The position numbers were made by a program, and so were the translations under genes. From IMG/VR virus record IMGVR_UViG_3300014656_000003, positions 1 to 60,110 of that record: DNA of 60,110 nucleotides. One strand, given 5' to 3'. The notes beneath the pieces were generated by a model, which was not told the origin of the DNA, did no database searches, and worked only from the letters and a program-made list of their open reading frames with translations. Source of the DNA: a virus (taxonomy: Duplodnaviria > Caudoviricetes). Position 1 is the stretch's first letter, and every line of letters starts with the position of its first letter. Positions 1 to 25,434 of this stretch are shown piece after piece.

Positions 1-123
1 AGCCGCTAAGCCGACGGCCCCCGCGTAGGTATTATGCGTAACCGTAAAATCTCCGAGGAGAAAACGATGATTGCCATCCAATACAAAGCCGAAATATTCG
101 CCTTCTCCAATATGAACGATCTC
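1..123. repeat. Terminal direct repeat, copy 1 (circular-contig overlap)
   Basis: 1-123 is identical to 59988-60110, and the terL reading frame continues across the junction. Confidence 0.97.
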
Positions 124-1155
124 GCGTATGCCGGTAGTAAGCACATCTTTGAAAGGTTTTCGTTTCGGACACCTCTTTCTTGGTATCAATGCCGGAACGA
201 CGGACAGGTCGCCTGAAACGCCAACCTGATAATATTCGCCTTCGAAATCTATTACCTTAATCTTCTTCCTTACTTTTTTCATGTATGCCGCAAAACCTAA
301 AGATCGGCACAGGAAAAGCACATCTCTGGCCAGTGTTTTACTTTTAAAAATAAATTGGTAGCTGTTTCGGTTGACGTAACCATCCGAATCAGCGAGGCCG
401 GCCAGGAGACTTAAACGGAAACTTCTTGAATTTGCCTTAAAATCAATTGGTATATGTTTGTTTTTTATGAGATTATATCTTCTTAAGTCTTCGGTGAGCG
501 GATTGGTGATTCCCCCCTGATTCCCGTCGGAAAAAGCATAAGTGTCTGCCTGATTATCTTTTAATGGCCTTTTTTTTAGGCCGACCCCGATTTCTTTTGA
601 ATATCGCTGAAGGAATTGAATTATTTCCTTGTCAGGGGTTGTAATGGCAGGAAGATGAGAATGACCGTCGCCAAGCCAGATGCCAAGGAAATAGGGACCC
701 AACAGTGTTACCCTGGATGGAAAATCAACGGCGGATCGATACAGCTTGTGGATATTTCTGAAATTCTGGGAAGTTTTCAAATAATCATTCACCGAAATAT
801 GAATTACGGTTCCGGCAAGCCGGTCCGGTTTTTTTGTGGGGGTTCTTTTTAAACACAGGATATGTTCTCCGTTGGTTGCAAAGGGTTCCCCTTTTATGGG
901 CACAACCCTGTAAAGCTGTCCGTACCCGTGTCCGAGATTAAGGACATTCCTGGGCGTTCCGTCATCCCCCATAACACGGTCTCCCGCCCGGATATCCTCT
1001 ACATTCTTCAACGCCCCGTCATACATCAGGATTTTTGTACCCTTTTTTAGACATTTCCCCTCGCCCATGGGTCCAATGATCTGGACGATATGGGCGGCGG
1101 AGTCCACAAATTCCGTCTGGGTGGGTCCGAGACTTAATTCCAGATCCCCGGGCAT
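1..1155 (-). CDS. terL: Terminase large subunit, 5' part including intein; continues at 59987 down to 58644
   Basis: Manual translation from the ATG at 1155 (TAATG overlap with the terS stop): MPGDLELSLGPTQTEFVDSAAHIVQIIGPMGEGK|CLKKGTKILMYDG. Walker A GPMGEGK/T is split by an intein. Missed by the ORF track because it runs off the edge. Precursor is 832 aa. Confidence 0.93.
   Translation of the reverse strand, partial: MPGDLELSLGPTQTEFVDSAAHIVQIIGPMGEGKCLKKGTKILMYDGALKNVEDIRAGDRVMGDDGTPRNVLNLGHGYGQLYRVVPIKGEPFATNGEHILCLKRTPTKKPDRLAGTVIHISVNDYLKTSQNFRNIHKLYRSAVDFPSRVTLLGPYFLGIWLGDGHSHLPAITTPDKEIIQFLQRYSKEIGVGLKKRPLKDNQADTYAFSDGNQGGITNPLTEDLRRYNLIKNKHIPIDFKANSRSFRLSLLAGLADSDGYVNRNSYQFIFKSKTLARDVLFLCRSLGFAAYMKKVRKKIKVIDFEGEYYQVGVSGDLSVVPALIPRKRCPKRKPFKDVLTTGIREIVHIGEGEYFGFVLDGNHRFLLGDFTVTHNTYAGAVGLAA
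31..1053 (-). mobile_element. Intein (341 aa) with LAGLIDADG homing endonuclease in the TerL Walker A
   Basis: Starts CLKKGTKILMYDG and ends DGNHRFLLGDFTVTHN|T. Endonuclease blocks PYFLGIWLGDG and LLAGLADSDG. Lower GC than the flanks. Confidence 0.95.
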
Positions 1156-2279: not shown

Positions 2280-2594
2280 CTATCTGTTGACGTCCCTCAA
2301 TACAGTATAAACCTCAACAGCCTTTAGCCTGCTGAAAAGGGCGGCCGTTGTGATCATACGCACGAACCCTCGCTCTATGGGCTGCAAGTCTCTTTCTTTC
2401 TTTACGATATCCTCGATAACCCGCTCACACAACCACCCATCCCGGCCGTCATTCTGGGTTGCATATTCCATGGCCATCATCCCGTAGTGCAGCCCTACAT
2501 GATAATCCTTTAAAAAATCCCCGTTTTTCTGCACACACCAGAAATTCCCTTGCCGGGCGCTGTTATTCACGAAAGGAAGCTCTTCGATGATCAT
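2280..2594 (-). CDS. Hypothetical protein
   Basis: 104-aa ORF with an ATGA overlap with the antirepressor gene. Confidence 0.7.
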   Translation of the reverse strand: MIIEELPFVNNSARQGNFWCVQKNGDFLKDYHVGLHYGMMAMEYATQNDGRDGWLCERVIEDIVKKERDLQPIERGFVRMITTAALFSRLKAVEVYTVLRDVNR

Positions 2595-3562
2595 AGCGCG
2601 TCACCCCCTTTCACGGCTCCGGTATCGACCGGGATGTATCTGAGGCCGATGCCGGTAAAATGTACCAGGCGCTTCCCCCCGTAAACACATTTTTTAGCCT
2701 TGGGGACCATCCGTATAATAAATCTGTAAAACCAGGTCCTTCCGAGCATAGGGCGTTTTTTTAATCGGCACCAGACCTTGAATTGTTCATAAAGATGAGT
2801 CGTTTGAACCACCCGCCCCTCGCCCAACAGGCAATGCTCGCGGACGAATAAGGCTACGTCTTCCGTCTCCGGCATAATGGCATAAACATCCCCCGCGTTG
2901 AGCGCGGGCTGTATATCCGCCATGAGTATCCGGTCCAGATCCGCAACCGCATTTATCCCGGCATCTCCGGGACTTATCGGATCAAAGGAGATCCCGGAGG
3001 CCTTCAGGATATCGTCGATCCGGGCCAGCCTCTTGAGCCCGACTCCGAATGCCGACCCCGCCTGCTGCCGGGTCAACCCCGCCTTCCTGAACTTGATGAT
3101 CTGAGCGACATCCTTCACCGGCACCCCCGTCTCCGCCGACGCCCTGGCAACGGCCAACCCTTTCCGGAGACCGGCGGCCTGGGCGGAAGGGAATGCATGA
3201 ACACCCGGGAAAAAGTGAGGGGATGCCTTAAGCCGCCGTTCGCACTCGATAAAATACTTCCTCGCCTCTCGTCCCTTCTCGTTTCGCTCAACCATGGCCA
3301 GCTCCTTGGCCATGTCCAGGGAAATGTGGTACTCGCTTGTGGGTCGGCCTCCGCTGGGAAGGTTTTTCTCATTTTTGAGAAAAACTACAAAGTCCTCGTT
3401 TTCCTTGAATAAATATTCATCTACCCTTCTTTTTAACCAGTCCTGATATTTACTGTTTACCCCCAGAAATTCATGAAGCTCCCGGGCATTCACCGTGGGG
3501 ATCTCCGCCCCCGAAACCACCGACATCCCCGTGGGGATCAACTCGCTTGTGTCTTCTTTCAT
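2591..3562 (-). CDS. AntA/AntB-family antirepressor with C-terminal D5/P4-primase-like winged helix
   Basis: VNARELHEFLGV...EYHISLDMAKELAMVERNEKGREARKYFIECE is the AntA signature. GGAGG RBS. The C-terminus resembles that of 6783..8231. Confidence 0.88.
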   Translation of the reverse strand: MKEDTSELIPTGMSVVSGAEIPTVNARELHEFLGVNSKYQDWLKRRVDEYLFKENEDFVVFLKNEKNLPSGGRPTSEYHISLDMAKELAMVERNEKGREARKYFIECERRLKASPHFFPGVHAFPSAQAAGLRKGLAVARASAETGVPVKDVAQIIKFRKAGLTRQQAGSAFGVGLKRLARIDDILKASGISFDPISPGDAGINAVADLDRILMADIQPALNAGDVYAIMPETEDVALFVREHCLLGEGRVVQTTHLYEQFKVWCRLKKRPMLGRTWFYRFIIRMVPKAKKCVYGGKRLVHFTGIGLRYIPVDTGAVKGGDAL

Positions 3563-4970: not shown

Positions 4971-5339
4971 TTACCCCGCCCGTCCTGGCACATAGACCCA
5001 TTTAACAATAACAATCAGAAAAGCTCCGACACCGGCAACCACAAACCCGCCCCAGTCATCATGCCACAGGGCCTCATAAAGCCCCACGCCCCCGATGCCG
5101 GCCCCGATCACTATGGAAAGATAGCCGGGGAGGTTGCCGATGCCTCTCCCGCCGGTGACCCGGCTGATGAGATACCCGATGCCGAAAAAAATAGAGATGA
5201 TAAAACAGAACCCATATCCCACCGTAAAGGACATCTTTATAAACTCCCGGTGATCGGGGAAAAGAACATATCCCGTGGGAGCTAAAAGCATAATAATTAC
5301 AAACACCCATGCCCCATCCCTGAACTTCATTCGCTCCAT
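4971..5339 (-). CDS. Membrane protein (about 4 TM segments)
   Basis: Four hydrophobic segments; abuts the next ORF. Confidence 0.7.
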   Translation of the reverse strand: MERMKFRDGAWVFVIIMLLAPTGYVLFPDHREFIKMSFTVGYGFCFIISIFFGIGYLISRVTGGRGIGNLPGYLSIVIGAGIGGVGLYEALWHDDWGGFVVAGVGAFLIVIVKWVYVPGRAG

Positions 5340-6782: not shown

Positions 6783-9350
6783 TCAACCGGCATCGCCTAT
6801 CACCTCCGGTGCGAGTTGTATTCCTATCAATTTAGAGGTCCTTCGCTTACCTTGTATCCGTTTTTCCACATTAAAATGCTGTTTTAATTGTCGATACAAT
6901 AGCGTCATTGAAATCGCAGAGTGTCCGTGTTTCTTGCACCAGTCCTGATAGTCCTCGTATAAATCCTTTGACGACATCATGTATTTCTCGCCTATGTCAC
7001 AATTCTCCTCAATATATATCAAAAGGGGATTGAGGTTAGCCATAAAGTTCCTGGTGTCCTTCTTGACATCCTCACCGACCTTAAACCCATGATCCTTAAG
7101 TAGATATCCGAGCCCGGCCAACATCCACATAAAAATTCCATCCTTTTCCTCTATTAATTTTGCCATCAGATTCTCATCCGTGTCCGGGGCTCCCTCCTCA
7201 AATCGTCGGTTATGTTGTAGGACAATAGGCCTACGCATGAAACCGTGGGACTTATCGGTTATCATTGGAGGAGTATTCATCGTGAAAATAAACTTACAGT
7301 AAGGGCGAAACTGATAGGGTATGCCGTATTTTCGCTCCGCCTTCACCAGGTCTCCGGACGAGGCTTTCTTGAAAGTGTTTGTCGCTGCTGGCTTTTTCGT
7401 CTCGATCTCGGTCGCTACATTGATCATCTTACCTTCCATCATCGAAATATTGAACTTTTCTGCCAGATCGTCCATATCAAGCGAGCTGGCATTCTCTTCC
7501 CCGATTATATCCACGAGTATATCCACGATCCGGGACTTGCCGTTGGCACCATCGCCCACTAAGAACAAGGCTTTTTGAAAACGGCTGTCCGGTAATAGAC
7601 AATAACCGAAATATTTTTGTAGGATAATAAATTTAGTATTTCCGGGTTCCGGATAGACCTCCTGACCAAAATCCAGCCATCTGTCTGTTTTTTCCAGGTT
7701 TGCCCAGTCATAATTGCATTTAACCTGACAGCGGGATCCATATTTAGGGTCATGCGGGAAAATCTCTCCGGTTTTCAGCTCGATCATCCCGGAAAGACAA
7801 TTAACAAAACCCGGGTCTGTATACCAGTTCCACCATTCTTTATTGACCATGCCCTTCAGGCCATCGATCGCTTCTTTGACATTTCCTATCCGCAGCTTGT
7901 TTTTCATGGCCACCACGGCTGCCTGGAAAATGCTCGACTCGGGAAAATCAGTCCACACCCCGTGCTGATATTTCCACCAGGCCTCAGCGGTGAACGTGAT
8001 CGGGCTTAAATATGCCATTAGATATTTTGCCAAAAGTTCCGGTTGAAATAACGGTTTCTTGACTTCGACACGAAAAAACATCCTCGGATCAACATCAAGG
8101 GGAGGGGGAAACGGGGAGTCGAGGACCTCGAAGGCGGGTTCATAAGGGACAATGATGCTGTCGAGTTCTTTCTCCTCATCTCGGCCTGCTGAGGAGTCCC
8201 CTGCAGCGCGATCCGGGTCATACCCCGTCATGAATTCCTTAAGAGACTTGTCTCCGGAGATCTTCGCTCGGGCATCCTTCCAGGTGTAGTGCCTGCAGGA
8301 ATCATGTTTGCATTTATAGAATAGGAATGGATATGTAGTCTTTTGGTGTATTGCAGCCTCACCGCCCCGGTGATTCTCATCAAAAAGTCAATCATGGAGG
8401 ATATACATATCCCCGGTACGTCCATCATCCGGCTTGAACTTATATTGCTTCCCGTAATGATCTAGGTACCGGTCGACGTGAAAGGTACCCCAGTCACCCT
8501 TCTTTATTTTTTTAGCGCCAGTGGTCTGTTTAGGGGGAGATGAGGGGACGGGAAGAGAGCCTGCCGGCGCCAGGGCGGACAGGTCTTGCAGTTTCTTTGC
8601 CGGCGATCGGGAAACATTACCAAATTTTGCGGGCTGCCCTTTGTGTAAAAAACTTTTTCGGTACGGTCGGTCCTCGGTATGGTCGCCTTTTCTCGCTATG
8701 GTGCCGTACAATTTCGCAATTCTGGCCGGGTTGAAGTTCTCCCGGTCGATTTCAACCTTGTCATTTCCCTTGAATTTCTCAGCGATGGCAACCAGGGCCC
8801 GCTTTATAAGCTGGACGTTCTCCGCGGTATTTTCCATCCCCTCGAGGGGATATTGGAGATGAAAACCGTTCCCGGATACGGCGCGGATCCCTGGGGCCCA
8901 CCCCAGCTCACCTTCGAGCCAGGCGGCCACTTCTCGGGCGAGATCTTCGGCGTTTTTCATCTCCTCGTCTGTGCTACTGATACCGCTCACCTTTTCATAT
9001 TTTCCGGGTGAGATCTCTGCCTTTGGATCGAAATCAACGTACAACCATCTAATGATAGCGATGTTAGCGTCTGTCGTTGTGTTTATGCCGGCCTTCAGCT
9101 TGTTGGGTGATCTTGCGAGGAGGGGAGGGGGGCAGGGGTTGAGGGTGAAATAGACGCCCAGGGCGCCGGCGTCATCCAGGGTTTTGGCCGCCTTGGCGAA
9201 ATCTACTGCATTGTTGAAATACCCTGCAACTACTGGTTTTGCACCATAAGCACTGCCTTCCCAGTGCTTGCTCGTGCCGCGGATCCCCCCGATCGCTCGA
9301 ATCTCAACTATTTCCCCGGGATTAAAGAACAGTTCATATACTCGTTTCAC
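6783..9350 (-). CDS. Primase-polymerase-like / Zn-finger / D5 (P4-family) SF3 helicase fusion, 855 codons with one in-frame TGA at 8388-8390
   Basis: ORFs 8388..9350 (YVDFD, SGNGFHL: AEP-like) and 6783..8231 (GDGANGKS Walker A, KFIFTMN) are in the same frame. The linker is open after the TGA: HD*LFDENH...CKHDSC...WKDAR. Confidence 0.85.
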
Positions 9351-9484: not shown

Positions 9485-10210
9485 TCAGGGCATTTCTCGG
9501 AATTTTTCCAAAAATGTGGGCATAACCGGAACTTCAACGTCGTTGTCAGAGGCTCGAAGGTGGGCCGCGGCCGCCCCCCAGTTGCTTGCTTCTTCCCTCA
9601 TATCATCCGCCCAGTTGCTGACTTCTGTGGGTGTCACCTCCACGCCGGCAAGAGACAAAAGATCAGTGATGATTCCGGGTTCATCGTATTTTTTCAGATC
9701 CAGGAGGCGGTCGATCTCGGCCGCTATAAGGGCGCCGGCTATGACCAGCTCACGAATCCGAGGGGGCGAGTAGTCCTTCGGATCGGCAACGACTATCTTT
9801 TCACCGCCCCCATGTCTCTTCCGCTTGTCCCACCATCCGGCCCATTCATCAGGCCAGGGATCAAAGAAGGATATGGTTCCATCCACCCATTCCCTTATTT
9901 CATACAACCTTTTCGGCGTGGCGTAACACACGGCAGCCAGGGCCAGATCACCTCCGCGATGTTCCCGATCATGCTCTTTGTTGAACCCCTTTTGGTAGAT
10001 CTGCCGGGCACGCTCTATAGTGATCATGGCTGCGCCGTCTTTTTTGCTCGATTTTTCATACTCCTCTAACAGCTCTCTGTATTTATCCATTGACTCCTCC
10101 CTCCTCTCCAATAGGTAGTATACTTCCAGGCCGAGCTTATTCTTCAGTGTATCCTCTTGCATCCGCTGCCCCCAGTCCTCCCACGGTTTATTGGTAACAT
10201 TCCTGTACAT
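9485..10210 (-). CDS. Conserved phage protein (ERARQ...HD...LALAAVCYA...LVIAGALIAAEIDRL type; possibly MazG-like fold); start uncertain
   Basis: Motif recognition. The 5' part of the track ORF (to 10360) overlaps dnaA and is probably not translated. Confidence 0.6.
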   Translation of the reverse strand: MYRNVTNKPWEDWGQRMQEDTLKNKLGLEVYYLLERREESMDKYRELLEEYEKSSKKDGAAMITIERARQIYQKGFNKEHDREHRGGDLALAAVCYATPKRLYEIREWVDGTISFFDPWPDEWAGWWDKRKRHGGGEKIVVADPKDYSPPRIRELVIAGALIAAEIDRLLDLKKYDEPGIITDLLSLAGVEVTPTEVSNWADDMREEASNWGAAAAHLRASDNDVEVPVMPTFLEKFREMP

Positions 10211-11555
10211 ATCCCCTTGTCTGACTCCCTTCCAGTTCCTTGGCCAATAATTCCACCTGCTGCTTGACCTGCCGGCTCGTCTTACACTGTTTTTCGATCG
10301 CTTCCGATCCGTATATAACGGTTGCATGTCCCCGGCCGACGCTTTCCCCGATCGTCTCAATTGTTTCGTCTGTGAACTGCCTACAGAGATACATATAGAC
10401 CTTCCTCGGCCACACGTGCACCTTTAACCGTGACTTGGCCCTTAGCATATTCGGGGCCACTTTGTAGCGTTTACACACCAGGTCCTCCACGTCCTTCATC
10501 CTCACCCGCATCCGGGTATCGGTGGTAGCCTCCAGGATCTCCTTTGCCAGTTCCGGGTTGATGTCCCGGCGGAGGAGTTCGCTCCTGATCTTCAGGTTTT
10601 TCAGAACTCCCTCTATCTGCCGGATATCCCCCCGGAGGGTGCCGGCCAGGAGGCCTACGATCTCCCCTGGCAGCTTTATGTCATACTCAACCCCCTTCTG
10701 CTCGATGATCTTTCGCCTTGTCTCTGCGTCCGGTACGTCGATCCTGGCCACGATACCCGATGAGAGACGAGAGGTCAGGCTCTTTCTCATATACGGGATC
10801 GCTTGAGGCATGAGTGAGCTGGTCAGTACGATTTTCTTGTGCTCGTTAATCAGCATATCCAGGGTGTAGCCGAGGGCTTCCTGTGTCTTGTTTTTCGCGG
10901 TCATAAAATGAATTTCCTCGAGGATCAGCACATCGCACCCGGCGTACTTGATCTTAAACGGTCCCATCTGCCCGGCCTTGATAGCATATACCATGTCGTT
11001 CAGAAATTCCTCGGACGTAACATAATTGACTTTAATAGTCCTGTTGTTCTCCAGGATGGCGTTGCCGATTGCTTGGGATAGATGAGTCTTTCCAAGACCT
11101 GTCGCCGCAAAAATGAATAGCGGATTATTGCAAGATCCCGACTCTTCGACGAGGACACGTGCGGCTGCGTATGCCAGCTCGTTACACCTTCCCGTCGCGA
11201 ACCGTTCGAAAGTATAATCTCCGTTCAGCCTTCGCCCGTTTCTGCCTACATCGATGTTCGAGATAGCGAGTTGTGGGGATTCCTTAAATCTGTCCGGTTG
11301 CGCCGGCTCACGCTTCCGGGTGCCGGCGACGATCGTAATTTTAATACCTTCCGAGACTTCCGCTGCAGCGGATTTGATAATCTGGGAGAAATTCTCCTCA
11401 ATCCAGTGGCAGACGAACTTATTCCGGGCCTCTATCACTATCGTGTTGCCCTTTTGCTCCTTGAACACCAGGGGCGTGATCCATATCTCGAAGGGCTTGG
11501 CCCCGACCTTTTGCTTTACCTTCTTCTTTATTTCTTTCCACAGGGCCTGGTTCAT
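10188..11555 (-). CDS. dnaA: Full-length DnaA-like replication initiator (domains I, III, IV)
   Basis: FEIWITPL (domain I); YTFERFATGRCNELA, NPLFIFAATGLGKTHL, DVLILEEIHF, DIRQIEG (AAA+); PRKVYMYLCRQFT...GRGHATVIYG (domain IV). Confidence 0.92.
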   Translation of the reverse strand: MNQALWKEIKKKVKQKVGAKPFEIWITPLVFKEQKGNTIVIEARNKFVCHWIEENFSQIIKSAAAEVSEGIKITIVAGTRKREPAQPDRFKESPQLAISNIDVGRNGRRLNGDYTFERFATGRCNELAYAAARVLVEESGSCNNPLFIFAATGLGKTHLSQAIGNAILENNRTIKVNYVTSEEFLNDMVYAIKAGQMGPFKIKYAGCDVLILEEIHFMTAKNKTQEALGYTLDMLINEHKKIVLTSSLMPQAIPYMRKSLTSRLSSGIVARIDVPDAETRRKIIEQKGVEYDIKLPGEIVGLLAGTLRGDIRQIEGVLKNLKIRSELLRRDINPELAKEILEATTDTRMRVRMKDVEDLVCKRYKVAPNMLRAKSRLKVHVWPRKVYMYLCRQFTDETIETIGESVGRGHATVIYGSEAIEKQCKTSRQVKQQVELLAKELEGSQTRGYVQECYQ

Positions 11556-12224: not shown

Positions 12225-12276
12225 CGCTAACCGTGGAAATCAGCCGTGGTTAATCGGCTGAATTTCCTGGTTATCT
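12225..12276 (-). mobile_element. attC-like site A
   Basis: AGATAAC-CAGGA-AATTCAGCCG...CGGCTGATT-TCCACG-GTTAGCG; imperfect palindrome with an extra base in the left arm. Confidence 0.8.
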
Positions 12277-12401
12277 GATTCTCTACAATATGGACCTCTC
12301 TCCTTGACTCCCCATCCGCAAATCCAACAATATTGGAAATCATATCCGGGGCCTGTCAGTAATTCGTCACACTCCGGGCAATATTCTAATTTTTCGTACA
12401 T
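12240..12401 (-). CDS. Cassette ORF, 53-aa Zn-ribbon protein (MYEKLEYCPEC...CWICGW)
   Basis: Manual translation; GGAGG RBS directly after the R' of site B; ends inside site A. Confidence 0.7.
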   Translation of the reverse strand: MYEKLEYCPECDELLTGPGYDFQYCWICGWGVKERGPYCRESDNQEIQPINHG

Positions 12402-12415
12402 GGTTCCCTCCAGGC

Positions 12416-12483
12416 AGATAACATTGAGTTGAGAAGTGGCCGGATGTCTTTACCGGCCAACTTTCTCAAACGATTGGTTATCG
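12416..12483 (-). mobile_element. attC-like site B
   Basis: CGATAAC-CAATC-GTTTGAGAAAGTTGGCCGG...CCGGCCACTTCTCAAC-TCAAT-GTTATCT. Confidence 0.85.
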
Positions 12484-12738
12484 TCTCGCACGACCCGATG
12501 TAGGCGATTCTTCACTATTACAGGCTGTTCCAGCAACGCAATCCTGTGGGACATTACCCTGAACCTTATTGTATTCTTTTTCCATCCTCTCAGGATCGTC
12601 AAGAAACGCTTCAAGGTCAGAAATAAGTTCCTTTTTGTCCGTGTACGCAAGGCGACAACAACCCACAGTTACAAAAAAACCATTATTTGCCGATGCTTCA
12701 ATATTAATACTGTAATTAATTATTCTTCCAAATTCCAT
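12478..12738 (-). CDS. Cassette ORF, 86-aa hypothetical protein
   Basis: AGGAG RBS after the R' of site C; TAA stop lies within the R'' (TAAC) of site B. Confidence 0.75.
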   Translation of the reverse strand: MEFGRIINYSINIEASANNGFFVTVGCCRLAYTDKKELISDLEAFLDDPERMEKEYNKVQGNVPQDCVAGTACNSEESPTSGRARR

Positions 12739-12767
12739 TTTATTACTCCTTTCTATTTAAAGGTTGA

Positions 12768-12825
12768 CGATAACGATTAACTAACACGTGAGCGTAGCGA
12801 ATCGTTGTTAAGTGATTGGTTATGT
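12768..12825 (-). mobile_element. attC-like site C
   Basis: ACATAAC-CAATC-ACTTAACAACGA-TTCGCTACGCTCA-CGTGTTAGT-TAATC-GTTATCG. Confidence 0.85.
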
Positions 12826-12957
12826 GAAGGCTATTGCAATCCCACAAAGCAACAACCAGCAGACTATAAAGGCTATTAAGCCCTTTTTGCCCCCCAAATA
12901 TCCAACAATAAACCCTACTACTGTTGCAGGTATCCAAACCATATTAATTAAATCCAT
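12820..12957 (-). CDS. Cassette ORF, 45-aa membrane peptide (MDLINMVWIPATVVGFIVGYLGGKKGLIAFIVCWLLLCGIAIAFT)
   Basis: Manual translation; GAGGAGG RBS; TAA stop in the R'' of site C. Confidence 0.7.
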   Translation of the reverse strand: MDLINMVWIPATVVGFIVGYLGGKKGLIAFIVCWLLLCGIAIAFT

Positions 12958-12972
12958 TTTTATTCCCTCCTC

Positions 12973-13026
12973 ACATAACGTGGAAATCACTCGCTCTTTT
13001 CAGTCGAGTGAATTTCCTGGTTAGCC
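12973..13026 (-). mobile_element. attC-like site D
   Basis: GGCTAAC-CAGGA-AATTCACTCGA...CGAGTGATT-TCCAC-GTTATGT. Confidence 0.85.
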
Positions 13027-13148
13027 TTTTCATTTGTAAATAAAATCCCGCCACTACCATCTTGGACAAGGACTTTTCCACCACATTTTCTGCAAATGTT
13101 TTGGTACAGGTTTCTTGTCGGGATAACGCATTCACATATTTTTTCCAT
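12987..13148 (-). CDS. Cassette ORF, 53-aa Cys-rich protein (MEKICEC...CRKCGG)
   Basis: Manual translation; GGAGG RBS; ends inside site D. Confidence 0.65.
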   Translation of the reverse strand: MEKICECVIPTRNLYQNICRKCGGKVLVQDGSGGILFTNEKANQEIHSTEKSE

Positions 13149-13172
13149 TACTTCCTCCATTTTTGATATCCA

Positions 13173-13222
13173 GGCTAACGTGGAATTAATCGGTTTTATC
13201 CGGCTTAAATTCCTGGTTATCT
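13173..13222 (-). mobile_element. attC-like site E
   Basis: AGATAAC-CAGGA-ATTTAAGCCGG...CCGATTAAT-TCCAC-GTTAGCC. Confidence 0.8.
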
Positions 13223-13344
13223 TTTATCCAGCCCATTTTCACTAAGTCTTTTTCACAACTGCTATTAAATTGATGAGCCAACAAATCAACCTCAGCTTCA
13301 AAAGACTGGCCACAAATTTCACAAACCCAATCTTCTCTTGTCAT
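13186..13344 (-). CDS. 52-aa Zn-finger-like protein (WVCEICGQSF...LLAH)
   Basis: Manual translation; ends inside site E. Confidence 0.6.
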   Translation of the reverse strand: MTREDWVCEICGQSFEAEVDLLAHQFNSSCEKDLVKMGWIKDNQEFKPDKTD

Positions 13345-13459
13345 ACCTCACCCCACCACTCCCAAAGCTATCAACAGCACTCCCACCACGATCATCTCCG
13401 GACCGATCGCCCAGGGACCCACCAGGATGGCCAGGAATCCTGCTACCAGGAGACCCCCT

Positions 13460-13663
13460 TTAACTGTGCGCCGGGTTCGTTCTGATACCATAATCCTCCG
13501 GTCCAGCCGAGTAGATCCCGATTACTTCCAGGGTTCGGTCATTGCCATTGCCTTCGGGAACGTATTGAAAATTCTTTGACCCGCACTCCGGACATCCTTT
13601 GTCATTCTCGCTCTCAAACGTATGGTGACAATGCTCACACCACTTCTTAAACTTCTTAGGCAT
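13460..13663 (-). CDS. Zn-ribbon protein
   Basis: CEHC...CPECGS; GGAGG RBS. Confidence 0.7.
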   Translation of the reverse strand: MPKKFKKWCEHCHHTFESENDKGCPECGSKNFQYVPEGNGNDRTLEVIGIYSAGPEDYGIRTNPAHS

Positions 13664-13665
13664 AA

Positions 13666-14529
13666 TTAACCTCCCTTCTTCTCTTTCGCCCAGGTTTTTA
13701 CCTGGAGCCTCGATAATGCCAGCACGCTCGGTTTCAGCTCATCCGGTGTGTCTTTATAGCCAAGCCGAGTCAAATTCAGCAATCCAGCCCGCGAGATCAG
13801 CATCAGATTTTCAGGCTCGCAGCGGGTTTTATCACCATCGATAAACGCCACGACCATGCCTTTCGGCACCGGACCGTGCGCCTGCTCCCAGATGTGCACG
13901 TGTTTTTGCTTGTAACGGGTCGGGGAGCCGGTATGAGGATTGTGTTCGGGGACCTTCATAAGGATGTACCCGTCTTTCGTGCATATCCGTTCCGAGCCGA
14001 GCGGCTTGCGGTTAGGGGGAACATTCCCTTTTTTAAAGCTTCCTTTATTCGCGCCTGTCAGACCCTGGCCTTTGGTGCCCTGGTTCCAGGACGTATGCCC
14101 CTCGGGGAAATGACCGGTCCTGCCTGATGTAATGCCCCGGTTACTCACAAACGTCTTGATTTGCCTCCGTGTCTTGTGGTCCCCGAATCGATCGTTAAAT
14201 AACACGGTCAGCTCAGCCACACTCCTGCCCGCGTAATTGTCCCGGATAAACTGTGCCTGCTCTTCAGTATATATTCTCAGCCTTGATATCATCCTGTCTT
14301 TATGCTTTCGCCCGCACTTGATTTTGTGGCTTCCTAATGCCGCCTTGATCCCGACTTCGGTTTTTGCCGTACCGAACCGATCGTTAAAAGCCGGCGTAAG
14401 CCCGTGAACATTCATGGACAGATATTCGGTTCGTAAAAACGTAATTTGCTGATCGGTATATCTATTCCGCAGCCTCTTCATCCCCCCCCACTCCCAACAT
14501 TTCGGGGGCAGTCTTTTTAAGTCCGTCAT
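13666..14529 (-). CDS. HNH endonuclease-family protein (start possibly at 14480)
   Basis: HVHIWEQAHGPVPKGMVVAFIDGDKTRCEPENLMLISR; two N-terminal YTxEQxxF(L/I)R repeats. Confidence 0.85.
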   Translation of the reverse strand: MTDLKRLPPKCWEWGGMKRLRNRYTDQQITFLRTEYLSMNVHGLTPAFNDRFGTAKTEVGIKAALGSHKIKCGRKHKDRMISRLRIYTEEQAQFIRDNYAGRSVAELTVLFNDRFGDHKTRRQIKTFVSNRGITSGRTGHFPEGHTSWNQGTKGQGLTGANKGSFKKGNVPPNRKPLGSERICTKDGYILMKVPEHNPHTGSPTRYKQKHVHIWEQAHGPVPKGMVVAFIDGDKTRCEPENLMLISRAGLLNLTRLGYKDTPDELKPSVLALSRLQVKTWAKEKKGG

Positions 14530-15099: not shown

Positions 15100-15426
15100 T
15101 CAGCCCTTGAATACCTTTACTTTGCCGTTTGTGGGGTTGATCATTTCGCCTTTATCCGAGGACGGTACGCCGGGGGCTCTTCTTCTTTTCCGGCGAATGG
15201 CCTTTTTGAGGATCTTGTTAAATGGCGCCTCCTCAATCAGGTTATTGATCCACATATCCAGGACATCCACGTTATAAAGCCTGGTCCTGTCGGATCCTCC
15301 ATGGGGCACCCCCTTTGAGTGCGCCCTGAATACGGACAATGCCAGACCGCAGTAGATCGCGGCTTCTCTGATCCGGAGCCATGGCGTCCTGATCACCTTC
15401 CCTTCAGCTATCACTACTTCCTTCAT
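15100..15426 (-). CDS. Excisionase/MerR-like winged-HTH protein
   Basis: WLRIREAAIYCGL...RLYNVDVLDMW. Confidence 0.7.
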   Translation of the reverse strand: MKEVVIAEGKVIRTPWLRIREAAIYCGLALSVFRAHSKGVPHGGSDRTRLYNVDVLDMWINNLIEEAPFNKILKKAIRRKRRRAPGVPSSDKGEMINPTNGKVKVFKG

Positions 15427-15628
15427 GCTCCTCCATTATTTTCGGCCAATTCTCGACAAGAAGCCCCCAGTGCAAGCTATTCGGAGTTCTCTCTCCTCGC
15501 TCCCACATAGAGACAATCGAGGGATTGACGCCGATCCTCGCCGCGACCTGCGCCTGGGTCAGTGTGTACTTGATCCTCAACGCCAGAATGATATCCTGGA
15601 TTCTCTCCGGATCCGGCATATTCGCCAT
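15404..15628 (-). CDS. XRE-family HTH regulator
   Basis: LTQAQVAARIGVNPSIVSMWERGERTP. Confidence 0.9.
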   Translation of the reverse strand: MANMPDPERIQDIILALRIKYTLTQAQVAARIGVNPSIVSMWERGERTPNSLHWGLLVENWPKIMEEHEGSSDS

Positions 15629-19947: not shown

Positions 19948-20610
19948 ATGAATACACATTTTGGAACCAGGCTAAAAGAAGTCAGAAAAGATGTAAAATT
20001 AACTCAGGAAGATTTTGCCAGGGAAATCGGTGTCAAAGGACCTCATATTTCCCAGCTTGAAAAAGGCAAGAGTAATCCATCCGATCAATTCATTAAATCC
20101 ATATGCCACCGGTTTTCTGTAAATGAACCCTGGCTTGTTAAAGGAGAAGGGGAGAAGTATATCTCTTTGAGAGAAGTGGCGAGAGAACATGTCCTTGGGA
20201 TACCGCCGCAGGCTAAAGACGATGAAGGCCTGTGGGGCAAAACCCGGCATCATGAAGCCAAGGGCGAGCACTTCGCTGTCACCGAATTTGAACCAAGAAA
20301 AGAGGATTTAGATTACGACGATCCGGCCATCAAGACTTTTGCGGAGCTGAAAAAGGTTTTTGAGCTGGATTCCCCCGAAATCCGAGATGCCATACTCGGA
20401 CGGTTCCGGGATGTCGCCTTCATATCCCGTCTATTGATAGACTATCAAGACCTTAAAAAAGATCACCTGTCCCTACGCAATAGGCTGGATAAGGTATTAT
20501 TGGTTCTCAAGAGAGTTGAAGATATCCTTGTAGAAGGGAAATTACCCGAAAACATTGAAGAGAGACGCGAGACCTGGGTCGCAATGAAAAAGGCAATAGG
20601 CATCGATTGA
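19948..20610 (+). CDS. CI-like XRE repressor
   Basis: RLKEVRK...LTQEDFAREIGV...ISQLEKGKSNPS...VNEPWLVKGEG; no S24 peptidase domain evident. Confidence 0.9.
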   Translation: MNTHFGTRLKEVRKDVKLTQEDFAREIGVKGPHISQLEKGKSNPSDQFIKSICHRFSVNEPWLVKGEGEKYISLREVAREHVLGIPPQAKDDEGLWGKTRHHEAKGEHFAVTEFEPRKEDLDYDDPAIKTFAELKKVFELDSPEIRDAILGRFRDVAFISRLLIDYQDLKKDHLSLRNRLDKVLLVLKRVEDILVEGKLPENIEERRETWVAMKKAIGID

Positions 20611-20626
20611 AAGACATCAATCCAAA

Positions 20627-21697
20627 ATGCCAGTTTATACCAAAAAAAACCTCCTCTACTGTGTCTACTGCGACGGCCCCAAACGGATTTGGGAACCCTT
20701 TGGCAAAGACACCCCCCAAAATCGCGCGGCCGCCGAAGCCCGGGACTTTGAGATAAAGGCACGGAAAAAGCGGGGAGCATGGCACCCGTCTACCTACAGC
20801 CTCATCACCTTCCGTGATCTTGCCCAGGCGTACATCGATGAGCGGGCTCCCGAACTGGCCAAAAACACCGTTGATTGTATATTCTACACCCTGACCGCTT
20901 ACGTTCCGGACGACCTCCAGAAAACGTCCATCAGCCGGATCACCCTGGCCGACTGGACCCGGATCCAGCAGCAAATGATCAAGGCCGGCGCCCAGGGCAA
21001 AAAACTCAAATTAGGAACCATCAATAAATATTTCCACTACCTGGACAAGATATGGCGGTGGGCAATAGAAGGCAATGACCCGTCGCTCATCGATCGAAAC
21101 CCCTGGGAGAGGAGAAAACGACTGAGCGATCGCCGGGAACGCCAGAAAACCCGCCTCCGTCTCCTCAGCCTGGCCGACCTGAAGCGGATCATTGCCTTTT
21201 CCGCCCCTCACCTCGCCTGGAGCCTGGCCGTGGCGTACTACACCGGCGCAAGGACGGGACCGACCGAACTCTTTGCGCTACAGTGGAAACACGTAGACTG
21301 GGGGCGCGGGGGAATCAGGATCCCCGGCACCAAAACCGTCCGCAGTCGGCGCTGGCAGTTCCCGGACAAACAATTCATGCCATGGCTCCGGATGCGCTAC
21401 GATTACGACCAAGAGAAATACCCCGACTGCCCGTGGATCTGCCACTACCGCGGCGAACCCATAAGCTCCCTCAAGACCGCCTGGCGAACCGCTAAAAAGA
21501 AAGCCGGCATAACGAAGCGGATCCGAATTACGGATATCCGCCATTTTCACATCACCTACGCCCTGGCGGGCGGCGCCGACATCATGGACCTGGCCGAGCG
21601 CGTCGGCCACTCCAACGCCCGGATGATCATCGATGTCTACGCCCACCTGGCCAAAGACATCCAAACAAACCAGCCCCACAACATCCCAAAACTGTAG
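20627..21697 (+). CDS. int: Tyrosine integrase
   Basis: YTGAR, TK, DIRH, GH and YAH catalytic motifs; adjacent to a tRNA-derived attP. Confidence 0.93.
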   Translation: MPVYTKKNLLYCVYCDGPKRIWEPFGKDTPQNRAAAEARDFEIKARKKRGAWHPSTYSLITFRDLAQAYIDERAPELAKNTVDCIFYTLTAYVPDDLQKTSISRITLADWTRIQQQMIKAGAQGKKLKLGTINKYFHYLDKIWRWAIEGNDPSLIDRNPWERRKRLSDRRERQKTRLRLLSLADLKRIIAFSAPHLAWSLAVAYYTGARTGPTELFALQWKHVDWGRGGIRIPGTKTVRSRRWQFPDKQFMPWLRMRYDYDQEKYPDCPWICHYRGEPISSLKTAWRTAKKKAGITKRIRITDIRHFHITYALAGGADIMDLAERVGHSNARMIIDVYAHLAKDIQTNQPHNIPKL

Positions 21698-21857: not shown

Positions 21858-21903
21858 TGGTGGAGCTGATCGGGATCGAACCGACGACCTCATGAATGCC
21901 ATT
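21858..21903 (-). tRNA. 3' half of tRNA-Ala(GGC) = attP core (not a full tRNA)
   Basis: AATGGCATTCATGAGGTCGTCGGTTCGATCCCGATCAGCTCCACCA: anticodon loop GGC, T-arm GGTTCGATCC, CCA end; the 5' half is absent. Confidence 0.9.
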
Positions 21904-22015
21904 AATGGTATATGCCGCCATTACACCATAACTATCTGATTTTGTTAGGCGTGACTTTCTTTTAATGCCGTTTTGCGCCGTTAAAAAGAGCCTCGACTGT
22001 AGATTAAGTGTAGAT

Positions 22016-23353: not shown

Positions 23354-23981
23354 GGTATTTTACTTCCCCTGTCACATCATCCCGGTACCTCTCTTCCAGG
23401 TCTTTGATGGCATCCGTCAACCCATCCTTATCCATCCGGAGATACATGGCTGTCATGAGGGCCTGGTCGTGAAAGTTGATGACTTCTGTCCGGCCGGGTG
23501 GGACCTTTCCGACATTCCATTTGCTTTTGGATTGATATCCTCCGTTATTGTGCCAGAACCTCCCGAGTCGCCAGTAGGCCCATGTTCGGAACAAAAGCCA
23601 GATAAAGGCCACAATGGCCAGGACTATCATGGAAATGGTCATGGCCCGGTCCCAACCGAGCACCACGTATTTCACAAACGCCACGATGGCCAGGACCTCC
23701 GCCATCGTGGTAATCTTGAAGCTCTGGACAATAGCCAGGCCCTGGTGATACCAGTATTCCCAGGCAGTAAATTTATCGATCGCCCTTTTTCTGCTCAGCT
23801 TCGGAACCTTTCCCCTGATCCGCTCACGCAGTTTGTCTCTTGCCAACTTTAGCCCCCTTTGCCTGTACGATAATATCGACATAATCCAGATGTTTTTCGA
23901 CCCGCTTCTTGCCCAGGATGGCCATGTTGTCCCAGGGCAGGAGGTCCAGTGCCTGGTTATATGCCGCGTTGGCCAGCACAT
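23343..23981 (-). CDS. Membrane protein; true start probably near 23840-23880
   Basis: Two TM segments; the track's 5' extension overlaps the upstream gene. Confidence 0.55.
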   Translation of the reverse strand: MCWPTRHITRHWTSCPGTTWPSWARSGSKNIWIMSILSYRQRGLKLARDKLRERIRGKVPKLSRKRAIDKFTAWEYWYHQGLAIVQSFKITTMAEVLAIVAFVKYVVLGWDRAMTISMIVLAIVAFIWLLFRTWAYWRLGRFWHNNGGYQSKSKWNVGKVPPGRTEVINFHDQALMTAMYLRMDKDGLTDAIKDLEERYRDDVTGEVKYHGY

Positions 23982-25434
23982 GAGCGCCGTTGAAGTAGGC
24001 TATATCTCCCATGCCTCTGTATAGCCACCACAGCAACAGATCCCCGTCATAGTGTTCTATGGCCTTGACTGTATGGACCCAGGCCGTCACAAAATGACCT
24101 TCCTTGCTGCAGTGGTCGGCGGCCAGGCTGTTGGCGTGGGTACTCCGTGGATCCAGCCGGAGACATCTCGTCAGGTCCGTCGTCGTCTTTTTCGCATAGT
24201 ACCTGTTCAGATAAAATGACCACAGAGCGCGTTTTATGATGTAGCGGTATACCAGACACCCTATTGCAAAATAGAGCACAGCGACGAGGGGCAGGGTCCC
24301 CGATAAATCTATTTTAAGGCCATATCCCTGCCACGCGCACCCGATCATGGCCCAGAACACGAGGTTGAGGGCCGGGATGTGGAGGGCGTGGAAGAAGAGC
24401 CCGTTTCCCGCGATCGCGGCGATCACCGCGAGGATAAGATACCCCTCGCTTCCGCCTCCCGATGCCGCCGCCACGGCCGTGGCCGTTACAGCGCCCAGGA
24501 GAAGGAGCCCCGGGATCCCGTTGTCAAGTACCGCCTGGAGGGCGTCGTTATGTGCCAGCTTCGGCCAGGGATCCTGGTAGTTCTCTTTTCGCAGGAACTC
24601 GCCGGCGGTCCGTTTGTGGATGTCCCCCTGGATACGTGCGACCGTAAGTTTCCAGCACCTGAATCCTACCCCTGTCACGGGGCTCCTCCTTATCTGCTCC
24701 ACGGCCACCCGCCAGTAGTTCATCCGCTCCTTAAGGGTATGCTGATTGAAGAGGAAGAAGGCGCCCCCGAAGGGCAGCACGAGCATGAAAACGATCGGGT
24801 TATGGAGTCCGGCCAGGAGCAGGGCTCCGATACCGACTCCCATGAATGCGGCCCGGCATTTCGTCCGCCACATGGCGAAGAGGATAACAGCGCCGGCAAA
24901 GGCCCAGAAAAAGGACTGGGCCGCCGCCAAGTGCGCGGCCATGAGGGCGTGCGGGGCAAGGTATGCCGCCAGGTGGTTCGGATTCCCGATGAGCCCGGCA
25001 GGCTCGAACTGTTTGCGGTACCTGATTTTATTGTGAAGTTTTATCCTGAAGACGTTATGGATTATGGCGACCAGGGCGTTGAGCGTGGCCATGGCCGTGA
25101 AGGCCTCGATGACGGTCAAGGCTTCCACGCCGGCCAGGAGAAAAACCCCAAGGAAGACACTGAATCCGTATATAAGGGTCCACCGGATGGCGTTATCGTT
25201 CCTCTCGGATCCCGCGGCACACACGAACCACCAGATCACCATCGCGGATGCCAGGACCGCCGTGCCGGCCGGCACCTGGATCACCGGCCCGGAATAGAGC
25301 CAGGCCCCCAGGAGCAGGTGCCCCGCCACACACAGAAACGTATTCCTGGGGATGGAGAAGGGCTGAGCAAATACCCCGTTCGTGATCAGCACCATGTATG
25401 TGCACGCCGTAATTAGCGCAAAAATCTCAATCAT
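23824..25434 (-). CDS. O-antigen ligase (Wzy_C/WaaL/PglL-like) family membrane protein with C-terminal TPR-like region
   Basis: About 12 TM segments; GNPNHLA, TKCRAA, ERMNYW...PVTGVG, AHNDALQ...GIPG motifs. Confidence 0.85.
   Translation of the reverse strand: MIEIFALITACTYMVLITNGVFAQPFSIPRNTFLCVAGHLLLGAWLYSGPVIQVPAGTAVLASAMVIWWFVCAAGSERNDNAIRWTLIYGFSVFLGVFLLAGVEALTVIEAFTAMATLNALVAIIHNVFRIKLHNKIRYRKQFEPAGLIGNPNHLAAYLAPHALMAAHLAAAQSFFWAFAGAVILFAMWRTKCRAAFMGVGIGALLLAGLHNPIVFMLVLPFGGAFFLFNQHTLKERMNYWRVAVEQIRRSPVTGVGFRCWKLTVARIQGDIHKRTAGEFLRKENYQDPWPKLAHNDALQAVLDNGIPGLLLLGAVTATAVAAASGGGSEGYLILAVIAAIAGNGLFFHALHIPALNLVFWAMIGCAWQGYGLKIDLSGTLPLVAVLYFAIGCLVYRYIIKRALWSFYLNRYYAKKTTTDLTRCLRLDPRSTHANSLAADHCSKEGHFVTAWVHTVKAIEHYDGDLLLWWLYRGMGDIAYFNGAHVLANAAYNQALDLLPWDNMAILGKKRVEKHLDYVDIIVQAKGAKVGKRQTA

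Follow-up and report, generated by a model that had tools for sequence, protein, structure and literature searches.

Five attC-like sites and small cassettes without an integron integrase in a complete temperate phage genome

We analysed a 60,110-bp stretch of DNA, here called the window, which is a whole virus record (IMG/VR record IMGVR_UViG_3300014656_000003) with direct terminal repeats, rated 100% complete. Nearly all genes of this phage lie on the minus strand. Among them, within 1.0 kb (12225-13222), five sites resembling the attC recombination sites of integrons separate small open reading frames (ORFs), and all five sites are on the minus (coding) strand. An initial annotation, made from the sequence alone, had proposed five attC-like palindromes in this region, and each was found where it had been placed, with lengths of 50, 54, 58, 68 and 52 nt. 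The array is composed as follows, from its upstream end; the limits of the sites are those set by a covariance model, R1, and the detector is an architecture search, both described below.

13186-13344, minus strand: ORF cE, 52 aa, Cys-rich (CxxC..H), weakly zinc-finger-like; ends inside site E and belongs to a partial unit
13173-13222, minus strand: attC-like site E, 50 nt; R'' is AGATAAC and R' is GTTAGCC; lowest R1 score among the five, 13.4 bits (E=1.1)
12979-13178, minus strand: cassette D, 200 bp, starting with the TT behind the G of site E and ending on the G of site D; GC 0.395
12987-13160, minus strand: ORF cD, 57 aa (53 aa from the second ATG, which is preceded by GGAGG); Cys-rich
12973-13026, minus strand: attC-like site D, 54 nt; R1 score 34.1 bits (E=2e-5), both extrahelical model positions filled; DNA fold z=-4.2
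12774-12978, minus strand: cassette C, 205 bp; GC 0.39
12820-12957, minus strand: ORF cC, a 45-aa hydrophobic peptide; ribosome-binding site GGAGGG ahead of the ATG
12768-12825, minus strand: attC-like site C, 58 nt; R1 score 15.6 bits (E=0.36); 9 bp and 2 left-arm bulges by the detector
12422-12773, minus strand: cassette B, 352 bp
12478-12738, minus strand: ORF cB, 86 aa, of an uncharacterised small-protein family
12416-12483, minus strand: attC-like site B, 68 nt; R1 score 24.4 bits (E=0.0033); 16 bp and 3 left-arm bulges by the detector
12231-12421, minus strand: cassette A, 191 bp
12240-12401, minus strand: ORF cA, 53 aa, zinc-ribbon-like; weak Zn_ribbon_3 match (E=6e-5), below the cut-off
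12225-12276, minus strand: attC-like site A, the last of the array, 52 nt; hybrid R' GGTTAGCG; R1 score 28.6 bits (E=3.7e-4); DNA fold z=-6.1

Every site is built on one plan: after xxxTAAC and a 5-nt spacer come the left arm, the loop and the right arm, and then a spacer of 4-5 nt and GTTAxxx, with one additional G ahead of GTTA in site A. All five thus have the make-up of attC, that is, an imperfect palindrome R''-L''..L'-R' with TAAC..GTTA cores and unpaired spacers. On the coding strand it is in every case the left arm that has the unpaired extra bases, as the annotation had it (1-3 bulges in sites B, C and D with the detector, which disallows right-arm bulges). This is the canonical polarity, and it was seen both with the detector and in the R1 alignments. 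Because the extra bases sit in the ORF-side arm of the top strand, as they do in the reference sites described below, the plus strand of the window corresponds to the recombinogenic bottom strand. Sites A, D and E form one subtype with the common sequence TAACCAGGAA(A/T)TT...(A/T)TTCCACG(G)TTA (the arms that mark the subtype are TAACCAGGAAttt..aaTTCCACGTTA), and sites B and C have TAACCAATC in common. For sites C and B, the minimum-energy fold given by ViennaRNA alone lacked the pairing of attC type, and sites E (-1.6) and C (-1.75) had weak fold z-scores.

The detector looked for a stem of 9 bp or more, with no more than 3 bulges and these in the left arm only, set between AAC plus 5 nt on the left and 4-6 nt plus GTT on the right. 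In the 60-kb phage it found four of the five sites and one other match on the minus strand, and one match on the plus strand; the background was a mean of 2.4 matches per 60 kb on both strands (30 shuffles). The sites exceed chance. An unconstrained scan for AAC..GTT minimum-energy hairpins gave 158 matches on one strand and was dropped as too permissive.

The covariance model R1 was built from DNA taken beside ten integrase genes positive for the integron integrase profile TIGR02249 (loci L044-L053). In these ten loci the detector found 42 sites on the expected strand and 8 on the other. Thirty-one of the 42 were used for training; left out were 6 of the 13 near-identical sites of L048, four of the five of L047 (one of them doubtful, the other three exceeding 100 nt) and a doubtful site of L052. 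The consensus of the reference sites is nTCTAAC-AAnTC-AATCCAGCGGAC...GCCGCTGATTT-nnAT-GTTAGAn. In the training alignment 94.3% of the cells were paired, and the covariation was 0.350, compared with 0.093 after shuffling and at most 0.081 with the pairing partners slid.

R1 was run unfiltered on both strands of the whole window and gave seven matches at E<=10. It placed the five sites at the top, all on the minus strand; the other two matches scored below 10 bits, and no plus-strand match was present at any of the five sites at this threshold. Sites D, A and B were each significant alone. As controls, R1 gave no match at E<=1 in nine related phage loci (96.9 kb), and it gave 14 distinct sites on the expected strand (15 matches, one site being matched also in reverse) in four integrase-linked loci, from a Geopsychrobacteraceae genome, a Zhongshania genome and two metagenome-assembled genomes (MAGs) of Desulfobacterota type. 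Because arrays of other bacterial groups were recovered, R1 behaves as a general attC model and not as a phylum-specific one. The likeness extends to the sequence of the arms: those of site A (AATTCAGCCG..CGGCTGATTT) can be set beside those of a site in the related phage locus L004 (AATTCAGCGGAC..GCCGCTGATTT) and the integrase-linked consensus (AATCCAGCGGAC..GCCGCTGATTT), and the flanks of site B (TAACCAATCGTTTGA..TCAACTCAATGTTAT) closely resemble those of a site in L102, an IntI-linked array of Geopsychrobacteraceae (TAACCAATCGTTTAA..TTAACTCAACGTTAT).

The four complete cassettes, measured from crossover to crossover, are 200, 205, 352 and 191 bp long, in agreement with the small size (about 190-350 bp) first put forward; unit E is partial. 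Their ends are complementary over 8 nt in cassette D (GTTAGCCT/AGGCTAAC), 9 nt in cassette C (GTTATGTGA/TCACATAAC), 9 nt in cassette B (GTTATCGTC/GACGATAAC) and 8 nt in cassette A (GTTATCTG/CAGATAAC), so that the start of each of the four pairs with its own R''. The unit ends quoted in the annotation as self-complementary were exact. When the sites were compared all-against-all, R' of each site matched R'' of the next over 8, 9, 9 and 8 contiguous complementary bases, as against 4, 4, 5, 6 and 4 bases between R' and R'' within one site. Eighteen of the matched bases lie outside the common TAAC/GTTA, for which the chance probability is ∼4^-18. Such matching across units is the mark left when a cassette is excised in circular form.

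The base composition of the array is foreign to the phage: its GC content is 0.408 (0.39-0.455 in the individual cassettes, similarly low throughout), compared with 0.505 and 0.511 in the flanks and 0.517 in the whole phage. ORFs cD, cC, cB and cA each begin behind a GGAGG-type ribosome-binding site right after R', as annotated. The annotation also let the ORFs stop either in R'' or inside the site, and here it needs correction, since cE, cD and cA continue through R'' in one frame (..NQEF/NQEI..) and stop inside the attC site. The final 9-11 residues of these three products are encoded by the recombination site (cA ..DNQEIQPINHG, cD ..ANQEIHSTEKSE, cE ..DNQEFKPDKTD). Upstream, cE adjoins the stop codon of a 47-aa ORF (13348-13491); downstream, the array ends a few bases past R' of site A, and a gene of the phrog_11705 family (E=4e-11) follows directly on this end.

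None of the five cassette ORFs had a match above the cut-off in Pfam or PHROGs. A full HMMER search with cB found 432 representative clusters at E<=1e-3, 41 of them at E<=1e-10. This widespread family, which has no Pfam entry, shares a conserved N-terminal domain of ∼60 residues with the consensus MxFGKxIxYxIxIxPSxNxGFxVxVGCxxxxYxDKxxLxxDLxxYLxDPExxEKxYN, and cB is a real gene. A viral homologue with 52% identity (L227) is encoded by an ordinary gene that no attC site adjoins. A search for the cB family in 401 genomes of the phylum of genome G404 gave no matches, and, as a search without a positive control, it shows nothing.

The surroundings of the array contain the following genes of the phage.

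2591-3562: AntA-type antirepressor, in the regulatory/replication block
6783-8231: D5-type primase/helicase, in the regulatory/replication block
10188-11555, minus strand: full-length DnaA-like protein with N-terminal, ATPase and C-terminal DNA-binding domains
13666-14529: HNH endonuclease, in the regulatory/replication block around the array
15404-15628: helix-turn-helix (HTH) protein, in the regulatory/replication block around the array
19948-20610: CI-like HTH protein, transcribed opposite to the regulatory/replication block
20627-21697, plus strand: phage tyrosine integrase, 356 aa (PF00589, E=2e-17; phrog_1 integrase, E=9e-50)
21858-21895, minus strand: 3'-end fragment of a tRNA-Ala gene, downstream of the integrase

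Judged from this gene order, the array would sit in an early operon. Attachment cores of phages usually take the form of such a tRNA 3'-end fragment; this one is probably the attP core, and a tRNA-Ala gene is the likely target of integration. The phage is temperate, because a CI-like HTH protein, a tyrosine integrase and a tRNA-Ala attachment core are all present.

No integron integrase (IntI) was found in the complete record. The sole match to TIGR02249 scored 27.4 bits (positions 241-302 of the profile; cut-off 265), and it is the phage tyrosine integrase, aligned over the generic catalytic region only. No recognisable attI and no Pc promoter were found at the array, and unit E is preceded by phage coding sequence, so the locus is not a complete integron. 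Cury et al. (2016, 10.1101/030866) define a CALIN (an attC cluster that has no integron integrase with it), in the terms given there, as at least two attC sites on one strand, within ∼4 kb, with no integron-integrase gene nearby. With five sites in 1.0 kb on one strand and no IntI, the array is a CALIN by this definition. We therefore read it as a genuine IntI-type cassette array without an integrase in a temperate phage, made of four cassettes and one 5'-truncated unit and served by IntI in trans, and we put the probability of this reading at roughly two in three. As the phage encodes no IntI, the enzyme must come in trans from an integron-bearing host, and the host is the most likely source of the recombinase. 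The core of the initial annotation, an integron-type array in the early region of a phage without IntI, is thus upheld by the R1 scores, the cassette ends, the polarity of the sites and the TIGR02249 search.

Several observations weigh against this reading. Taken singly, sites C (E=0.36) and E (E=1.1) were not significant by R1, and R1 is our own stand-in and not the attC model of IntegronFinder, with training sites chosen by a detector that assumed the same architecture. At 50-54 nt, sites E, D and A fall below the size of all 31 reference sites (58-96 nt). Sites A, D and E have T as their first extrahelical base (A on the bottom strand), while in the references this base is mostly C and is T in 4 of 31. 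For unit E no matching 5' end was found upstream, there being no GTTATCTT on the upstream minus strand. No closely syntenic relative was present among the 42 related loci considered below, and an empty site, gain or loss of a cassette or reordering at G|TT could not be shown among them. Finally, the clues to the host conflict, as the tRNA-Ala core and the sites of L102 point to Desulfobacterota-like bacteria and the best attC subtype match, in the contig L016, points to Omnitrophota, and the genome that contains L016 has no IntI above the TIGR02249 cut-off.

The clues to the host are as follows. A 34-nt stretch of the tRNA-Ala fragment recurs without a mismatch in the tRNA-Ala genes of at least 120 genome loci from many phyla. 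Thirty-eight nt are common to 12 of the 120 tRNA-Ala loci listed, which is a weak pointer to the host; the seven of these 12 that were checked are MAGs labelled Desulfobacterales, Desulfarculaceae, Desulfatiglandaceae, Desulfobacteraceae or 'Deltaproteobacteria'. IntI was present in two of the five genomes searched from this Desulfobacterota-like set. L016 came from a looser exact-pattern scan of genomes, which gave 13 matches compared with ∼30 expected by chance; only L016 was a cassette array. It is a 2.5-kb contig from an Omnitrophota-labelled MAG and has one site of the subtype of sites A, D and E. In its phylum, an integron integrase above the TIGR02249 cut-off was present in 22 of 401 sampled genomes, and the ten integrase genes used for R1 are from among these. 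One cassette of L016 opens with ∼300 nt (360-658, plus strand) without a long ORF, in which Rfam recognised no family. An earlier exact pattern had matched L002 and L003 by chance, inside coding genes, and had led to one real relative, L004.

Single-protein locus searches with the HNH protein and with the DnaA-like protein found no relatives. An alignment of the HNH protein of the window with its L004 homologue led to 42 loci (21 viral, 16 metagenomic and 5 from genomes), of which only 5-6 kb flanks of the HNH gene were taken. These relatives share with the window only the HNH gene and a small gene preceding it, apart from a distant primase match in the L004 record (L058, 24% identity). R1 gave a match at E<=1 in six of the 42: L004 (42.9 bits), L073 (28.3), L066 (18.4), L075 (17.6), L076 (17.2) and L093 (14.5). 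The match in L066 is doubtful, being AT-rich (GC 0.15). The site in L073 was missed by an R1 profile search of genomes, which is less sensitive, and was found by unfiltered cmsearch. Rfam recognised no family in the window or in L016, L004, L075 and L076, and by tblastn the cassette proteins of the window, L004 and L016 had no homologue in the other loci then fetched.

Loci L004, L075 and L093 contain one cassette each with matching ends of 9 nt, and their cargo is unrelated to that of the window. In L004, the first cassette starts right after a tiny perfect palindrome, ATAAC-TT-GTTAT (5015-5036, plus strand), which may represent either an attC site that has collapsed or a minimal target site. 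In L075, two attC-like sites (369-457 and ∼615-745, plus strand) have the cores AAT/ATT instead of AAC/GTT, with the cassette ends ATTATGCAC/GTGCATAAT; at the crossover position both halves of the core have changed together, which, to judge from the sequence, could reflect a different integrase specificity. L093 is a contig of Zhongshania guokunii, with two to three attC-like sites near the HNH relative (8066-9209, minus strand; cassette ends GTTATACAC/GTGTATAAC). Elsewhere in the genome of this cultured isolate, a separate contig (L097, L101) encodes an IntI (416 bits) with an array of its own, and the isolate would be a tractable system for recombination in trans. L073 belongs to a second complete phage record (G812), in which a tyrosine recombinase and no IntI are present.

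The main rival to a phage array built up by IntI in trans is that a segment of a host chromosomal array, from the middle of a cassette to just past site A, was captured in one piece by illegitimate or homology-driven recombination, in which case the attC sites would be genuine and perhaps inert. Unit E lacks a canonical 5' junction, as would be the case for a breakpoint inside a cassette, and the similarly low GC of all cassettes also agrees with a common origin in one segment. Moreover, Vibrio phages with a subset of a host chromosomal integron are described, and illegitimate recombination at GTTRRRY-like motifs is discussed, in PMC9892861. However, the array is ∼8 kb away from the integrase and the tRNA core, so imprecise excision of a prophage does not explain it. 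It also stops just past R' of site A, before the phrog_11705 gene, as a junction at G|TT predicts and as a random breakpoint would do only by luck, and the related loci, whose cassettes differ and vary in position around the HNH module, suggest repeated independent events. We consider capture in one piece unlikely, though it is the strongest of the alternatives.

The annotation had also suggested a phage-specific cassette system. In such a system the tyrosine integrase of the phage or an unrecognised phage recombinase would move the cassettes without a host integron. The window and G812 are both complete records with attC-like sites, a tyrosine recombinase and no IntI, several related phages repeatedly have such sites near one gene module, and in L075 the AAT/ATT core is present in both sites, all of which would suit such a system. 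However, the L-boxes and the architecture are common to attC sites of ordinary chromosomal integrons beside bona fide IntI genes, and the only tyrosine recombinase of the phage is a generic phage integrase, which fits TIGR02249 only at 241-302 (27 bits), with the rest unmatched, and has a tRNA-type attachment site of its own. The recurrence around the HNH gene is in part an artefact of the search, because only its flanks were taken. This suggestion is not supported and is improbable. Least probable of all, and hardly credible, is that the hairpins are intergenic regulatory elements (terminators, RNA stabilisers or modules like the promoter/stem-loop (PeSL) elements) and not recombination sites: they do lie between genes and fold (on the coding strand, three of the five reach DNA fold z-scores of -4.2 to -6.1), but none is followed by a T-run, none is among the four terminator-like calls, the seven promoter-like matches (shuffle mean 5.0) show no excess within the sites in the coding orientation, Rfam has no family at the sites, and the cross-site R'/R'' complementarity of 8-9 nt, the one-sided bulges and the homology to integrase-linked attC would be left unexplained.

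If the array was built by IntI of the host, the attC sites would have been recombined as folded single strands, with the plus strand of the window as the bottom strand and the crossover at G|TT. The first entry would have left the non-canonical upstream junction, either by insertion outside an att site or by a recombination cutting into cassette E. With one attC in the phage, more cassettes could have entered by attC x attC recombination. Entry may have taken place in the prophage state or during phage replication, and the SOS response would be expected to turn on both intI and prophage induction. The cassettes appear to have no promoters of their own, are co-oriented with the flanking phage genes and carry a ribosome-binding site each, and for these reasons they would be expressed by read-through of the phage operon. 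The roles of their 45-86 aa products may lie in the takeover of the host or in counter-defence.

A route for the first entry is offered by the work of Loot et al. (10.1101/2022.09.11.507474), which describes that IntI inserts cassettes outside att sites (attG, isolated cassettes) in bacterial chromosomes. As presented there, this route fits a first cassette entering a genome without an att site, with expression from a nearby promoter; it differs in that it was shown in bacterial chromosomes, and the 5' junction of unit E here is non-canonical.

Arrays of this kind are already known in phages. Qi, Rajabal, Ghaly, Tetu and Gillings (2023, Front Microbiol 14:1091391; PMC9892861) report 17 CALINs in 10,705 NCBI phage genomes, both temperate and virulent, and IntI1 recombined five of the six phage-CALIN attC sites tested into attI1. 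The novelty implied in the annotation is thus lost, and our array adds an example to a published kind; it is no new system or mechanism. According to that report, the known phage CALINs likewise consist of co-directional rows of ORFs and attC sites without intI, with cargo mostly of unknown function, and the role proposed for them is access to the cassette pool of the host integron. The differences, as far as the arrays are described there, are that those genomes are of isolate type and ours is an uncultivated IMG/VR phage, and that here all four complete cassettes have perfect ends of 8-9 nt, the cassettes measure 191-352 bp, three sites are only 50-54 nt long and no methyltransferase is among the cargo. 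Our literature searches from 2022 onward on integron attC cassettes in viral contigs found nothing, and those on integrons in Omnitrophota found nothing on such a phage array.

With the chromosomal integrons (L044-L053 and L102), the phage array shares the order TAAC, 5-nt spacer, L'' arm with two extra bases, loop, L' arm, 4-6 nt spacer and GTTA, as well as the L-box CAGCGGAC..CCGCTG, the R'/R'' matching across a cassette and single small ORFs ahead of the sites. It differs from them in lying inside an operon, in being much shorter and in having no intI, attI or Pc, and the loop is 5-9 nt in four of the five phage sites and ∼14 nt in site C. The PeSL cassettes of T4-type phages are similar in that small phage genes lie between repeated stem-loops and are thought, in the account of Arbiol et al. 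(2010, PMC2839356), to shuffle modularly. In contrast to PeSLs, the phage sites here diverge in sequence, lack promoter and terminator features and have the attC end signature. PeSLs reportedly exchange by homologous recombination between conserved promoter-plus-terminator motifs.

Phage CALINs are rare (17 of 10,705 genomes in the one survey above, PMC9892861) and link phage transduction with the capture of integron cassettes. The present case is unusually clean, with a complete temperate genome, four perfect end signatures and a foreign composition. What it adds to the known kind is an uncultivated-phage example with very small cassettes and sites and with signs of repeated carriage in related phages. 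It suggests that a phage without IntI could pick up small genes via the integron machinery of its host, and that integron cassettes reach phages of uncultivated bacteria of sediment or groundwater type. Sites near or below the smallest reference size are substrates for asking how small a working attC site or cassette can be, and the array is test material for whether phages carry very small host-directed proteins in cassettes. Two preprints are said to describe bacterial integron cassettes as a store of anti-phage defence genes, and because of them a counter-defence role is worth testing; if the peptides prove to act in host takeover or against defence, they would be the phage-side mirror of such stored genes.

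Beyond the array itself, phages sharing the small gene and the HNH gene may repeatedly use mini-cassettes of ∼200 bp (attC of ∼50 nt; zinc-ribbon-like or membrane peptides of 45-57 aa) as a plug-in accessory store filled by host IntI in trans. Gene flow would then run both ways (cB and L227), and L075 hints at a variant integrase specificity. We offer this wider picture tentatively, as a possibility that is less likely than not.

Other features of the phage lie outside the array. Just upstream of the tRNA-Ala fragment (21926-21950), R1 gave a junk-level match, CTAACAAA..GTTAT, of 9.9 bits. At the genome end, an ORF that runs off the start of the window (1-1155, minus strand) has Hint and LAGLIDADG homing-endonuclease domains (Hom_end_hint, E=6e-21) and looks like an intein within a phage gene. 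Two genes are unusual as phage cargo: a single ORF of 3,187 aa (25882-35445, minus strand) and, after it, a 536-aa protein (23824-25434, minus strand) with an O-antigen-ligase (Wzy_C) domain (E=1e-11).

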